Assembly (NCBI GenBank): GCA_951406725.2
Contig: OX597837.1
Location: 29,822,001 to 29,886,000, forward strand
DNA: 64,000 nucleotides
Direction: 5' to 3'
DNA from: Octopus vulgaris
Lineage: Eukaryota
In this document: positions 352 to 58,247 of the stretch, one piece after another
Position numbering within the stretch: position 1 is the first letter of the stretch
Layout: each line of letters opens with the position of its first letter
The notes under the pieces: generated by a model
Told to the model about the DNA's origin: nothing
Seen by the model: the letters and a program-made list of their open reading frames with translations, nothing else
Databases searched by the model: none
Position numbers and translations under genes: made by a program

Positions 352-399
352 CTCACCATGCCTTCTTCCACCTGAAAACAGAGGGTTACACCGAGATGG
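352..399 (+). CDS. TNF-like ligand gene 1, penultimate 48-nt exon (HHAFFHLKTEGYTEM)
   Basis: ttatctttcag acceptor and gtaagt donor, phase 1/1. Same length and motif as the exons at 36902-36949 and 54400-54447, with homologous flanking intron sequence. The motif resembles TNF strand A (xAHL). Upstream exons lie before the window. Confidence 0.8.
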
Positions 400-449
400 G
401 TAAGTTCATTTATACAGAGTTATTGCACACTTTTTCTTATAATTTATGC

Positions 450-682
450 CTATTTCTTTACTACCCACAAGGGGCTAAACACAGAGAGGACAAACAAGGA
501 CAGACAAACGGATCAAGTCAATTACATCGACCCCAGTGCGCAACTGGTACTTATTTAATTGACCCCGAAAGGATGAAAGGCAAAGTCGACCTTGGCGGAA
601 TTTGAACTCAGAGCGTAGCGGCAGACGAAATACCCCTAAGCATTTCGCCCAGCATGCTAACGTTTCTGCCAGCTCACCGCCT
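450..682 (-). mobile_element. tRNA-derived SINE family B (core gcctttcatcctttcggggtcgataaattaagtaccag)
   Basis: About 230-bp repeat with a B-box-like gagttcaaattc. Copies at about 15389-15621, 19398-19627, 29728-29954, 33312-34505, 52295-52476, 55011-55672 and 62990-63770. Confidence 0.8.
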
Positions 683-867
683 CTTCATAATTTATATCAC
701 ACCCTTAATCTTTCTGTTATCTGAATGTGCTTGAGTCTTTTGCTCTATTAGTGTTTGTATTGTGGATTGCTTATTCATTATTAGTTGTGTCCTTCAGTTG
801 GATATCGGAAGTGACATTAAGGGATGAGTCCATCTGTTCAGTGTGAAATTTAAAATAATAATAATAA

Positions 868-1665
868 TAATGAAATTATTGTATCCAGTGCTCAGGTGCA
901 CCACAACTTGTCAGAAAGTGCACATAAAGTGTATGCAGTAATGTACAAATGTCTGGAAAGCGAACAATGTATGAGTCAGATACATGCTTGCGTGTGTATG
1001 GAGGGGAGAAAATCAGGTGTAGTGTTGACGAATCTCAGGAAGCATGGAAGTTTTGAAGGATGCATTGCTCCGACAACTAACAACTGATGCCGGCAGTTTG
1101 TTCCATGCTTCAGCAACTCTCAGCGTGAAAAAATGTTTCCTAAAGTCATGGGAGCTGTGCTGTTTTCTGACTTTGTAAACATGTCTACAGGTGTTAGACG
1201 GGTGGAGTTTGAAAAGGTGCTCAGAGTTATTGTTTGTAAGATGGTTGATAATTTTATGGGTGTCTGCCAAGTCAGCTGCCAGACATTGTGTCCATGCCCA
1301 GGGTAAGGCGTAAGTAAGGCGTTCAGAATATGGCAAATGCCTGATGGAGGGTATTCTTTTGGTTGCACATCGCTGAACGGCTTCCAGACGATTGATATCC
1401 TGGGCAAAATAAGGGTTCCAGACCGGTGATGCAAATTCCAGGTGAGGTCTTACCATAGCTATATAAAGCCGCAGATAGATAGTCGGAGAGCGGCTCACAA
1501 AGGATTTAGTGAGTGATGCCAAGACACCCTCAGCCTTCTTGACAATTTTAGCGATGTGTTTTGTCCAACGCAAATCACTGTTAATAATAACACCTAGGTC
1601 ACGTTCACACGAAGACTTTTTGAGATTAGTGTTGTGGAGGGAATAGGTGGACGCTGACAGAACAC
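868..1665 (-). mobile_element. CR1/L2-group LINE 3' fragment (RT C-terminus plus 3' UTR)
   Basis: ERDLGV..VRPHLEFASPVWNP..HFFTLRVAEAWNKLP motifs. Near-identical copies at 5727-6560 (-) and 13630-14345 (+). Confidence 0.88.
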
Positions 1666-2044
1666 TGCCTCCAGCCATGTAATGGGGCTTTTTTTTGTAT
1701 CGTGCTTACCCAAGGTTTACAGAATGAAATTCACCAACATTTCTTGAGAGCTTTATCAAATGAGCTCAGCTGTCCCCTTTACACGGTTTAAAAAGAAATG
1801 AAAGGAACTTGTTGCAGCTTTTGTTAAAGGCATTTAAATACTATGTGCTCATTGCTGGTTTGTTCTGTGTATGTATGGAGGCTATTACATGTTCGTGTGT
1901 GAATTGTATAAACACAAATATTATACTGGTTGATGTATAACTGAGAAATAGCAATGTGATTATTATTATTATTATTATTATTATTATTATTATTATTATT
2001 ATTATTATCATTATTATTATTATTATTATTATTATTATTATTGT

Positions 2045-54447: not shown

Positions 54448-55976
54448 CTGAAAATTAAGAAGAGAGAAAGCAGACAGTGAGAAGGATATATTTTAATATA
54501 GGTTCAATATCAACAGAAGACTATTCAAAGAAAAGAGTACCTCCTGATGTATTTCATACTAGCATTATCGCCCGGCGTTGCTTGGGTTTGTAAGGGAAGT
54601 AACTATATAAGCATTTTAGAGTTTTTCTTCCCTTATATAAAACCGAGTGAAAAATGGACTAAAAACGGGGAAAAATGATGGTAAATTTTTTTTTAAATCG
54701 TAGACTCATTGTAGACGCGCACTAATACCTAGAAGAGCTCGATATGAATCACAACTATAAGATACCCGCTTTTGGTTAAACTGCACTGCAAAATGTGGGA
54801 GTAGTTAGGAATCTAAATCGGAGTAGACAGACACACACACAACTACAGTTTTATATATAAAGATATTGAATACTTCAGATTAGCATCTAATAAACAATTA
54901 TACAACATATTAACTGTTTTACAATCATCATTAACCATAATGAAAATGAACTATATGGAGAACAAGTATTAACCATTAATGAAAGAGTGCCAAGACTAAG
55001 CATCCATTAAGGCGGCGAGGTGGCAGAAACGTTAGCACGCTGGGCGAAATGATTTGTGGTATTTCGTCTGTCGTTATGTTCTGAGTTCAAATTCTGCCGA
55101 GGTCGACTTTGCCTTTCATCCTTTCGGGGTCCATAAATAAAGTACCAGTTTCGCACTGGGGTCGATGTAATCGTCTTAATACCTTTGTCTGTCCTTGTTT
55201 GTTCCCTCTATGTTTAGCCCCTTGTGGGCAGTAAGGAAATAAGAAACATTAGCACACCGGGCGAAATGCTTTGTGGTATTTTGTCTGTCGTTACATTCTG
55301 AGTTCAAATTCCACCGACGTCAACTTTGCCTTTCATCCATTCGGGGTCGATAAATAAAGTACCAATGTCGCACTGGGGTCGATGTAATCGACTTAATACC
55401 TTTGTCTGTCCTTGTTTGTTCCCTCTATGTTTAGCCCCTTGTGGGCAGTAAAGAAATAAGAAATATTAGCACGCCGGGCGAAATGCTTTGTGGTATTTCG
55501 TCTGTCGTTACGTTCTGAGTTCAAATTCCACTGAGGTCGACTTTGCCTTTCATCCTTTTGGGGTCGATAAATTAAGTACCAGTTTTGCATTGGGGTCGAT
55601 GTAATTGGCTTAATCTGTTTATCTGTCCTTCTTTGTCCCCTGTATGTTTAGCCCCTTGTGGGTAGTATAGAAATATATATAAGCATCCATATATTTCACA
55701 CATCGCACAGTAGTTTCGTGAGCCTTAACATGGTCATCTAAAGCCATTGTCCAGTCAAATATTGTAGGCATCTCTTTCATATATTTAATGATGTGTGTAT
55801 TTTTGCCATTTATTTCTTTAGTATGTCTGTTTTTTTTCATGTTGAAGGTATTGCTATCTATTTTAAGACTGTAGTGTATTAAGATGTTCAGTGATTTCAT
55901 TGCCGTTACAATATGTTACAGTGTCATGATATTATGAACATGCAAAAAGCAAAATAATGGCAAAACATGTACTTAC

Positions 55977-56016
55977 ATTTAGAAGCTGGTGTCTGAACTT
56001 GTACTTTACTTTGTAT
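55977..56016 (-). CDS. TNF-like ligand gene 3, exon 2 (40-nt stalk exon IQSKVQVQTPASK)
   Basis: Polypyrimidine tract, atttag acceptor and gtaagt donor, phase 0 to 1. The downstream intron is homologous to gene 2 intron 2 (about 36000-36140). Confidence 0.72.
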
Positions 56017-56159
56017 CTAAATTAGAGAGAAAAAGAAAATTAAGATAAGATGGTGTTAGCTGTTGTTTGTATTAATTACATCACATTGCTGTCCTTTTTA
56101 ATGATTGTATCAAGACTGACACTGTCTTGTTATAATCTTGGATCAGACTTGATATTTGT

Positions 56160-56345
56160 ACCAATACATTTAATGTTGTAGCTGATGTTGTCATCCTTTA
56201 GCTTCCAGATTAATGTGGAGAAGGTTGTTGCATGTCTCTTCTTGTGGTGTCTGAAGGCTGAAAGATGTTTGTTGTATCTGGATTAAAATTTTTTATCTAC
56301 TGATTCAATAGAATACTTGGTCTTAGTAGTAACATCACAAGAAAG
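56160..56345 (-). mobile_element. Penelope-like GIY-YIG endonuclease relic
   Basis: F*SRYNKHLSAFRHHKKRHATTFSTLIWKLKDDNISYNIK resembles the FKxRYxNH..F...T.LS..IW.LK pattern of Penelope-like elements. Confidence 0.55.
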
Positions 56346-58154
56346 ATCCTAAGACAAAAACTATATAAGATGTTTGTTATGTTCCCTTGAAAAACGGTAT
56401 CTTTTAAAAATTTAAGAACCTCCAATGACTGTAAAAATTACAGAGAAGGAATTTTTTCTTTGTGTCTACCTTTTATAAAATACATCTTAGTGGGGATTAA
56501 ATATAGACCACCTGACACATTATAAACTATTCTAGTATGGTTTGTGTAATTTTGATATCTATAAGACACTGGTTATATTTGCTGTGGAGGTGATTATCTT
56601 CCCTGTGTTTATATATATATATATATATATATATATATATATATATAATCAGTATAGCCCAGCATTGCTCAGGATTAAGTTAGGATTATTAAGTGATCAA
56701 GCGCTTTATTTCAAACCAAAATAAGTGACATCGACGTCAAATTGTGACATATGACAGTATGTGTGTGTGCTTGCTGACTAGTTTTCTTTTAGTAATATAC
56801 TAAATGACTGAAACAAATATATAAATGAAAATAAATAAAAGACTATCAGTACTTAATGGGAAAAAAACTGTGGTGGACTTGTACACATTACATATAACTA
56901 CAGAATAGAAGTTGAAATTTCAAAAGCAGGTAAAAGAGAAATTGTGTTATATGACTGTATGTGTGTGTGTGCTTATTGACTAGTTTTCTTTTAGTAATTT
57001 ATTAAATGACTGAAACAAATATATAAATGAAAATAAATAAAAGACTATCAGTACTTAATGGGAATAAACTTTTGGTGGACTAGTACACATTACATATATC
57101 TACAGAATAGAAGTTGAAATTTCAAAAGCAGGTAAAAGAGAAATTGTGTTATATGACTGTATGTGTGTGTGTGCTTGTTGACTAGTTTTCTTTTAGTAAT
57201 TTATTAAATGACTGAAACAAATATATAAATGAAAATAAATAAAAGACTATCAGTACTTAATGGGAATAAACTTTTAGTGGACTTGTACACATTACATATA
57301 TCTACAGAATAGAAGTTGAAAATTCAAAAGCAGGTAAAAGAGAAATTGTGTTATATGACTGTATGTGTGTGTGTGCTTGTTGACTAGTTTTCTTTTAGTA
57401 ATATACTAAATGACTGAAACAAATATATAAATGAAAATAAATAAAAGACTATCAGTACTTAATGGGAAAAAACAGTCCCACTGCATGGCATCTTGGGAAA
57501 GTGTCTTCTGCTATAGCCCCAGGCTGACCAATGCCTTGTGAGTAGATTTGGTAGATGGAAACTGAGAGAAGCCTGTCGTATATATGTATATATATATATA
57601 TATGTGTGTATGTGTCTGTCCCCCTAGCATTGCTTGTCAACCAATGCTGGTGTGTTTACGTCTCCTGTCACTTAGCGGTTCGGCAAAAGAGACCGATAGA
57701 ATAAGTCCTGGGCTTACAAAGAATAAGTCCCGGTGTCGATTTGCTCGACTAAAAAAGGCGGTGCTCCAGCATGGCCGCAGTCAAATGACTGAAACAAGTA
57801 AAAAAAGAGTAAAAAAAGAGTAAAAAAAAGAGAGTAAAACAAATCCATTTATCTGCAAGTTATGAGGAAACAAAGTCGTTGGTGGAGTTATCATGTGTAA
57901 GAATGCATAATACTTTTTCTATTATTGGCACAAGGCCTGAAATTTTGTGGTGAGGGAAATATTCGATTAAATCAACCCAGCGCTTCACTGGTACTGGTTT
58001 TATCAACCCCGGAAAGATGGAATGTAAAGGCAACCTCAGAAGCATTTGGACTCAGAAAATAAGGATGGACAAAATGTTGTTAGACATTTTGTCCGGCGTG
58101 TTGACCGTTCTGCCTACTCGGCACCTTTGTCGAAAGTAATTAAAAAGAATTTAC

Positions 58155-58247
58155 CTGAGTTACTGCTACAACAATAGCAATGATCACTGCACATAATACT
58201 GCTAGTACACATAATACTATTAGTACTTCCTTTTTTGTTAATGCCAT
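58155..58247 (-). CDS. TNF-like ligand gene 3, exon 1 (MALTKKEVLIVLCVLAVLCAVIIAIVVAVTQ, signal-anchor)
   Basis: ATG with an upstream in-frame TAG, a 23-aa hydrophobic helix and a CAG|gtaaat donor in phase 0. The IIAIV..Q|gtaaa ending matches gene 2 exon 1. Confidence 0.75.

Follow-up and report, generated by a model that had tools for sequence, protein, structure and literature searches.

Three divergent TNF-superfamily ligand genes in a tandem cluster of Octopus vulgaris, one carrying a mirage minisatellite ahead of its final acceptor

Tandem expansions of TNF-superfamily (TNFSF) genes and 3:3 signaling have been described for invertebrates (bioRxiv 2024.07.27.603686; PMC12843592, in the portion available), and 23 TNFSF genes are cited for Crassostrea gigas in that portion of PMC12843592. 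Six monophyletic TNFSF paralogues have been reported in O. vulgaris (bioRxiv 10.1101/2024.07.27.603686). The preprint names GLY and FFG as motifs of the TNF homology domain (THD) and links FFG to oligomerization and receptor binding; for octopus, its main text has neither accession numbers nor gene models, and it shows neither a cluster map nor an analysis of the interface. Our search of the octopus TNF literature found no other paper describing the cluster analyzed here, and we infer that the six paralogues are these genes. A second described system concerns splicing. Amphioxus genes carry mirage minisatellites, which, according to the available part of PMC3087553, reportedly leave splicing intact; a search for literature on splice-site VNTRs gave nothing relevant under that heading.

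The window, a stretch of 64,000 nt from contig OX597837.1 of O. vulgaris, contains three paralogues oriented +, +, -, the last two being convergent. They are built alike: the GT-AG exons follow phases 0,1,1, the third exon is 48 nt long and the terminal exon carries a THD. The 48-nt exon and the phases are the ordinary plan of a TNF gene and no special feature. A literature search on the TNF exon plan yielded no citable paper. The third exon, which encodes HHxxFxLKTxGY, is 48 nt long and phase 1-1 in all three genes, preceded by a polypyrimidine-AG and followed by GT(A/G)AG. All three terminal exons contain LxW, IPQDGxYxI and LxMNxxKxxSPxK. The proteins end in SYLA, SFLY and SHLS and have one, one and no Cys in the domain, so there is no intradomain disulfide in these three proteins. 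The first-pass annotation had described the shared exon and motifs, the phases, the orientation, the endings and the Cys counts, and reconstruction of the exons in the window bore all of this out: open frames of 326 and 188 aa assemble for genes 2 and 3, and exons 1 and 2 of gene 1 lie upstream of the window. The in-window part of gene 1 comprises two exons:

352..399, + strand: gene 1 exon 3, 48 nt, phase 1-1, encoding TNF-domain strand A; joined to exon 4 in the public protein P0029
5254..5627, + strand: gene 1 terminal exon, remaining TNF homology domain and stop codon; Pfam TNF 21.1 bits, cut-off 23

The acceptor of the terminal exon is preceded by a (TTA)n tract (4772-5242). Gene 1 matches the LOC115223917 protein identically over all 139 in-window residues and LOC106873363 at 88%; judged by its sequence, it is intact and conserved between species. 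The cluster had been called hidden, which does not hold given this public protein and relatives already modeled in three octopods, some labeled TNF or THD. A library search returned 21 matches, 15 of them named Octopus or Argonauta proteins, the best reaching E 1e-60. P0019, P0022, P0023 and P0024 were dropped as noise (19-46 profile positions matched); two of them are repetitive proteins. The Octopus proteins LOC115223917, LOC106873363, LOC118761074 and LOC106872473 and their paralogues belong to the same clade as genes 1-3 and are named 'uncharacterized protein' in RefSeq and 'TNF family profile' or 'THD domain-containing protein' in UniRef. The proposed lineage-restricted expansion is supported by these Octopus and Argonauta relatives, within a family tree that resolves close pairs only (11 of its 20 inner branches are open, the Argonauta branches are long and it lacks a true outgroup). 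The concern that annotation could miss the genes applies to gene 2 only, which was not found in the protein collection; a public protein exists for gene 1, and the annotated LOC118761074 shares 89% identity with gene 3, whose N-terminus is shorter here.

The terminal exons were searched alone against Pfam, where TNF (PF00229, cut-off 23 bits) was the only family that any of the three matched. Scores were 28.5 bits for gene 2, 23.5 for gene 3 and 21.1 for gene 1 (two of three above the cut-off; E 1.7e-6 to 3.2e-4), and the full-length gene 1 orthologue P0006 scored 26.7 bits. C1q (PF00386) matched none of the three terminal exons at E<=10 and none of 16 family members scanned at E<=1. These E values, the relatives to E 1e-60 and the pairwise identity of 50-55% over 138 aa among the paralogues argue that the similarity within the cluster is not due to chance. 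Only eight of the 16 members matched Pfam TNF at E<=1, and one matched BclA_C. The predicted model of P0006, which shares 88% identity with gene 1, has a mean pLDDT of 77 and an anchor helix at 43-70; by hydropathy, genes 2 and 3 likewise each have a single anchor segment ahead of the THD. Among the 50 structural matches listed for this model, the top 21 are TNF ligands (Z 16.9-13.9; best match rmsd 2.5 over 141 aligned residues), and Foldseek likewise gives TNF as the best match to the model (E 2.1e-9). In PDB sequence searches the only hits were zebrafish TNF (7dov, E 1e-3 to 2e-5) and membrane-helix noise. TNF-ligand identity, type II topology and the jelly-roll fold, as suggested in the first-pass annotation with Pfam and Foldseek named as checks, are all supported. 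Sequence and modeling together support the conclusion that the three genes encode real but divergent TNF-superfamily ligands with a jelly-roll THD. C1q membership was rejected, there being no C1q profile match and TNF ligands leading by 3.4 Z units.

G-x-Y is kept in 23 of 23 aligned rows and the strand-H FG/FFG is absent from all 23; because the terminal FFG is absent, we file the three genes as divergent rather than canonical members. This absence, the sub-threshold score of the gene 1 terminal exon and the eight-of-16 Pfam count each count against the explanation that we prefer. Could the domain have left TNFR signaling and become a membrane-bound recognition or adhesion module, like C1q- or lectin-type jelly-rolls, possibly with a cation on a polar three-fold axis? 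The missing FFG and the lost aromatic axis would fit, as would the Atlas feature search, a superfamily-level lead that returned only BclA_C (55% of members), C1q (11%) and unnamed clusters at 0.92, and the C1q and BclA domains that match the P0006 model at Z 13.5-13.6 (first C1q match Z 13.5). We nevertheless regard this as very unlikely, given the 3.4-unit Z lead of TNF ligands, the lack of Pfam C1q in 16 of 16 members, though one has the BclA_C match, and a type II topology without a collagen repeat.

The gene 1 domain is predicted to form a homotrimer, with a score of 0.90 against 0.00 for the best control, contacts that agree in at least 91% between runs and pLDDT of at least 84. The mark was calibrated on microbial two-copy cases: 21 of 30 solved self-pairs attained it, and none of 23 single chains did. 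Only one of seven eukaryotic cases without an older solved relative reached it, so the gene 1 pass may reflect memory of solved TNF trimers. The trimer prediction proposed earlier supports a trimer, with its weight limited by this possibility. The residues at P0029 positions 135/137/185/189, on the predicted axis, are E/N/Q/T in gene 1, Q/T/Q/R in gene 2 and D/K/E/K in gene 3, suggesting that the axis is polar and varies between paralogues rather than being aromatic. Such an axis would be a testable departure from solved TNF ligands. Octopods may even have rebuilt the TNF trimer core, so that six or more clustered paralogues per species could act combinatorially as a code, pairing into homotrimeric and heterotrimeric ligands while diversifying selection acts on them, an idea that we judge quite improbable. 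If true, it would also account for the greater divergence of the exons compared with the introns next to them: coding exons are 68-71% identical, with exon 2 unalignable, and neighboring intron DNA is 75-89% identical. The description of the family as rapidly diverging is only partly borne out: dN/dS is 0.28-0.45 across the three paralogue pairs, despite this exon-intron contrast.

Gene 2 is complete within the window and contains an unusual last intron:

28018..28545, + strand: gene 2 exon 1, 176 codons for a cytoplasmic tail, acidic and of low complexity, and then the signal-anchor helix; phase 0 donor (from sequence)
34957..34987, + strand: gene 2 exon 2, 31 nt, phase 0-1, encoding a Pro-rich stalk; its flanks and the flanks of exon 2 in gene 3 are homologous
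36902..36949, + strand: gene 2 exon 3, 48 nt, phase 1-1 (exon model)
38098..41742, + strand: 52-bp mirage minisatellite in intron 3, with about 70 units in tandem, of the kind described in the available part of PMC3087553
41743..42116, + strand: gene 2 terminal exon, TNF homology domain and stop codon; Pfam TNF 28.5 bits

The spliced frame of 326 aa has a single hydrophobic 19-mer (Kyte-Doolittle 3.34). The tail in exon 1 includes an 18-bp repeat, and no relative of this exon or its long N-tail was found in the protein collection. Each 52-bp mirage unit consists of the intron end and an altered copy of the first 19 nt of exon 4. Ahead of the true last acceptor stand 65 intact decoy acceptors; the 66 copies of the junction 10-mer in the array region are the only ones on either strand of the window. 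Although of a known kind, the array offers a large natural test of how a 3' splice site is chosen. At least half of the gene 2 last-exon words occur in 20 of the 24 sequencing runs listed (nine studies); none of these is on record as RNA, so they carry no evidence on expression.

Gene 3 has a disturbed first exon:

53452..53837, - strand: gene 3 terminal exon, TNF homology domain and stop codon; Pfam TNF 23.5 bits
54400..54447, - strand: gene 3 exon 3, 48 nt, phase 1-1 (exon model)
55977..56016, - strand: gene 3 exon 2, 40 nt, phase 0-1, encoding the stalk; all 12 aligned residues are the same in O. sinensis LOC118761074
58155..58247, - strand: gene 3 exon 1 as modeled, ATG, 7-residue tail and signal-anchor helix; start codon doubtful (from sequence)
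within 58248..58391, - strand: a 28-bp unit repeated four times in tandem, containing three in-frame stops, at 58248-58362 (from sequence)
60898..60990, - strand: second copy of gene 3 exon 1, with ATA replacing ATG, in a tandem duplication of about 2.7 kb at 56.7-61.7 kb (from sequence)

Upstream of the 28-bp repeats, an 11-codon remnant (58391-58359) is identical at 8 of 11 positions to the longer N-terminus of LOC118761074; the insertion separates it from the helix. The frame of 188 aa, with a single hydrophobic 19-mer (Kyte-Doolittle 3.62), is open as first described, but its start codon is doubtful since the repeats cut off the longer homologous N-terminus.

Gene 2 lacks a close protein record (the closest, LOC106872473, is 65% identical) and the first exon of gene 3 is disturbed, so not all three genes need be functional. 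It is conceivable, if unlikely, that gene 1 alone works in this haplotype and that genes 2 and 3 are decaying through decoy mis-splicing and loss of the true start. From none of the 65 decoys is the TNF domain reached in frame, the protein collection yielded no record of gene 2, and in gene 3 three stops cut off the homologous N-terminus and the duplicate first exon begins with ATA. Against decay, all coding exons of genes 2 and 3 are open with canonical splice sites, dN/dS is below 0.5 in three of three pairs, amphioxus mirages reportedly do no harm to splicing (PMC3087553, available part), and the present ATG of gene 3 still yields a complete type II protein.

We consider the locus to be, probably, a tandem cluster of octopod-expanded TNFSF ligand genes that encode type II trimeric ligands signaling via TNFR-type receptors and that undergo birth-and-death turnover. 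Each intact gene encodes a type II membrane protein in which a cytoplasmic N-tail and one anchor helix are followed by a short stalk from exon 2 and, from exons 3-4, a C-terminal THD; sequence, Pfam and predicted fold show this THD to be a jelly-roll. At the cell surface, three domains are predicted to come together, most likely in homotrimers, around a polar axis in which Glu/Gln/Asp, Asn/Thr/Lys, Gln/Glu and Thr/Ser replace aromatics. By analogy with the family, the trimer would cluster three cysteine-rich-domain receptors (TNFR/Wengen/Grindelwald type) on a neighboring cell and trigger TRAF-JNK/NF-kB or caspase signaling, most likely in defense and cell death. Turnover would account for an intact gene 1, a gene 2 that tolerates the mirage at its last acceptor and a gene 3 whose first exon is rearranged and duplicated. 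The same ligands and mechanism could instead serve mainly development or the nervous system (EDA/Eiger-like patterning, neuron maturation or pruning), which we think unlikely: in O. bimaculoides, one subgroup of immature neurons of the optic lobe has a tnfr gene as its marker (bioRxiv 2022.06.11.495763, in the part available), but nothing ties this receptor to these ligands, and frequent tandem gain and loss is ascribed to immune TNFSF in tunicates and amphioxus (PMC12843592, in the part available). Octopus cytokines are poorly described, and the exon models, fold assignment and list of relatives offer targets for studies of expression and receptor binding in cephalopod immunity or neural development.

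Compared with known systems, the cluster resembles the C. gigas set and the O. vulgaris set of the preprint as a lineage-specific molluscan TNFSF expansion; a tandem octopod expansion is of an already known kind and does not overturn current understanding. The mirages of amphioxus Adh3 and globin genes likewise repeat an intron 3' end and the start of the next exon in tandem, with many intact AG, whereas octopus gene 2 has about 70 units against three to six in amphioxus BflGb6 (PMC3087553, available part) and adds a cephalopod host. TNF-alpha, RANKL, TL1A, CD40L, FasL and insect Eiger share the type II topology, C-terminal jelly-roll, Trp and G-x-Y-x-I of the octopus proteins, and the predicted octopus trimer uses the same strands as their trimers. 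In contrast, structure-aligned identity of the P0006 model to TNF ligands is 11-19% in the top 21 matches, and the octopus proteins lack FFG, have 0-1 Cys and a polar trimer axis, with Glu and Asn in their profile where zebrafish TNF has Phe and Tyr.

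The window is animal DNA rich in repeats. Three 48-nt exons and three terminal exons were located by a six-frame motif scan. Genes 2 and 3 have non-repetitive intron blocks in common that run up to an acceptor, and these led to their second exons.

Exons of the three TNF-ligand-like paralogues
352-399, 5254-5627, + strand: gene 1, exon 3 and terminal exon
28018-28545, 34957-34987, 36902-36949, 41743-42116, + strand: gene 2, 326 aa
58247-58155, 56016-55977, 54447-54400, 53837-53452, - strand: gene 3, 188 aa

All seven introns lying wholly inside the window are GT-AG, phases are 0,1,1, and the reading frames are open. 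The motif scan and gene models show that the first-pass annotation described the 48-nt and terminal exons accurately, including places, strands, phases, lengths and Cys content (one in the domains of genes 1 and 2, none in gene 3). The domains share 50-55% pairwise identity over 138 aa, and the type II topology assigned to the ligands rests on hydropathy. Mammalian TNF is built from four exons in phases 0,1,1, the third of them 48 nt long.

Compared with Pfam on their own, all three terminal exons match TNF (PF00229) as the sole family, not the C1q alternative, with 21.1, 28.5 and 23.5 bits for genes 1, 2 and 3; gene 1 falls under the cut-off of 23. Gene 1 has an O. bimaculoides orthologue, P0006 (88% identity over 139 aa). 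The AlphaFold2 model of P0006 reaches a mean pLDDT of 77 and shows a single helix (43-70) and a C-terminal domain made entirely of beta strands. In Foldseek the leading matches to this model are entries for TNF-alpha, RANKL, TL1A and TRAIL (best E 2.1e-9). A wide structural search places TNF ligands in each of the first 21 rows out of 50 (best Z 16.9, rmsd 2.5, 141 aligned), above BclA (Z 13.6) and C1q (Z 13.5), in agreement with the proposed TNF-type jelly-roll. Genes, domain and fold are all shown, so that the observation holds and its assignment to TNF ligands is correct.

The 188-aa length proposed for gene 3 is less secure: its frame is open, but its ATG (58247) lies at the end of a 28-bp-repeat insertion. 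O. sinensis LOC118761074, 89% identical to gene 3 and matching its exon-2 peptide at 12/12 positions, has ~30 residues upstream of the helix. Residues 19-29 are matched in frame (8/11) at 58391-58359, but the longer N-terminus is cut off by three in-frame stops within four tandem copies of a 28-bp unit, which lie between this remnant and the gene 3 helix; a purine-rich satellite lies further upstream. The 188-aa protein is possible, but derived. A tandem duplication of ~2.7 kb (56739-61726; copies 56739-59121 and 59485-61726) carries exon 1 of gene 3 together with a 202-bp array and a purine-rich satellite. The copies around exon 1 differ at 12 of 787 aligned bases, and the distal one has ATA where ATG is expected; the duplication may be a real allele or an uncollapsed haplotype.

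The last intron-exon boundary of gene 2 has itself been multiplied into a 52-bp array of ~70 tandem copies (38098-41747, +). Ahead of the authentic acceptor stand 65 intact copies of it, and none of these decoys gives the TNF domain in frame. An 8-nt direct repeat, present once at the start of the array and once within exon 4, suggests how the unit may have arisen. By its sequence, the array appears to be a large 'mirage' minisatellite; such arrays are described in amphioxus, where, in the passages available, splicing is reportedly not disturbed (PMC3087553).

Other repeats include an 18-bp coding repeat (~5-6 copies) in the gene 2 cytoplasmic tail (28037-28143, +) and a 129-bp GC-rich unit (19 copies, 96% match, 22523-24993) whose minus strand carries long open frames and to which sequence at 5815-5979 is related. 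Decayed reverse-transcriptase/endonuclease fragments, which we take from their motifs to be LINE-type elements, lie at 2224-4338, 7315-8893, 1016-1705, 6213-6572 and 10816-11109 (all -) and 46408-47701 (+); one, within the last intron of gene 1, has a 482-codon open frame (3669-2224).

The family was proposed to be one that ab initio annotation could miss, yet it is already public. Protein LOC115223917 matches gene 1 without a difference over the 139 residues that the window encodes; this supports the exon 3-4 junction, as annotation, and assigns the window to the genus Octopus. UniRef labels several relatives 'TNF family profile' or 'THD domain-containing'. No protein record for gene 2 turned up (the closest of 120 candidates of 217-2000 aa is 65% identical), and its exon 1, with a 150-residue tail, had no relative among 1,480 protein candidates of 96-308 aa; this absence is only suggestive, because known relatives, too, escaped these word-based searches. 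Searching 1.84 billion representatives with a profile yielded 21 matches: 15 named Octopus/Argonauta proteins, two unnamed full-domain proteins and four discarded as short or repetitive noise. With a further search the loci number six in O. bimaculoides, four of them on a record of equal length (36.2 Mb), and seven with LOC115/LOC118 names, four of which share a 31.2-Mb record. P0031, an unnamed relative (225 aa, 80% identical), is encoded in full on a contig of 1,277 nt, which is probably a spliced transcript. P0005 (O. bimaculoides LOC106872472, a current RefSeq model of 315 aa) combines the first part of the domain of one paralogue with a complete second paralogue and is probably an annotation fusion of two adjoining genes. 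P0020, P0032, P0033 and P0021, which come from an ENA record and otherwise from short Logan contigs, form a more distant unnamed clade of the THD, starred as a single group in the tree, in which FG is likewise absent. The family tree has support for close pairs only.

That the family is 'rapidly diverging', as first proposed, is only partly borne out. Pairwise NG86 estimates for the three paralogues (dN 0.29-0.35, dS 0.78-1.03, ratio 0.28-0.45) point to purifying selection, but exon 4 is less alike between paralogues (68-71%; four-fold sites identical 21/43) than the intron flanks of exon 3 (84-89%; shuffled ~54%), compared over these regions:

242-449: gene 1
36792-36999: gene 2
54350-54557: gene 3

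Exon 3 itself is 79-85% identical. Between genes 2 and 3, exon 2 aligns no better than shuffled sequence (0.40 vs 0.39), its flanks are 75-78% identical, and further intron-2 blocks (36579-36764 vs 54870-55736) are 78-88% identical. Flanks more alike than coding exons would argue against a simple purifying-selection reading. Three processes could each produce the contrast: gene conversion in the exon 3 region, constraint on the sequence that flanks the micro-exons, or faster evolution of the exons; the synonymous divergence of exon 4 favours conversion or flank constraint over acceleration.

Expansions of this kind are already known. Six O. vulgaris TNFSF paralogues, which may be the genes described here, are reported to form one clade with 100% support, and one mollusc to have up to 27 (bioRxiv 10.1101/2024.07.27.603686). 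Tandem TNFSF turnover is described in tunicates, and the oyster is cited with 23 genes (PMC12843592). In the passages found of an O. vulgaris haemocyte transcriptome paper, the legends name TRAFs, the text names LITAF, and no TNF ligand is described (PMC4199593). Open-licence literature yielded no study of this octopus cluster. What is described here is a new view of genes that belong to an expansion type already known.

The ligands are predicted to assemble as a trimer that would bind a receptor, with TRAF-JNK/NF-kB or caspase output. Of the two roles considered, the immune one seems likelier than the developmental one, even though immature neurons of the optic lobe are marked by a tnfr (bioRxiv 10.1101/2022.06.11.495763). 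For residues 80-223 of P0029 (protein LOC115223917), identical to gene 1 where the window covers them, the homotrimer scored 0.90 against 0.00 for the best control, with contact agreement of at least 91% and pLDDT of at least 84 across runs. In microbial two-copy calibration the pass mark was reached by 21/30 self-pairs and 0/23 single chains. The structure prediction gives the expected trimer, but it may be reproducing TNF trimers already solved, because only 1/7 eukaryotic cases without an older solved relative reached the mark.

The predicted interface comprises H86, F88, I133, E135, N137, Q185, S187, F188, T189, Y191, Y216, A218, T220 and L222; on the trimer axis E135 touches E135 of another chain. 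Axis positions differ among paralogues (D/K/E/K in gene 3), and one may speculate that the ligands form heterotrimers or bind a cation. All 23 aligned family rows retain G-x-Y and lack FG. The aromatic core of human TNF consists of Leu57, Tyr59, Tyr119 and Tyr151, mapping to strands F and H; zebrafish TNF, in contrast to the octopus ligand, has Phe and Tyr at the positions opposite E135 and N137.
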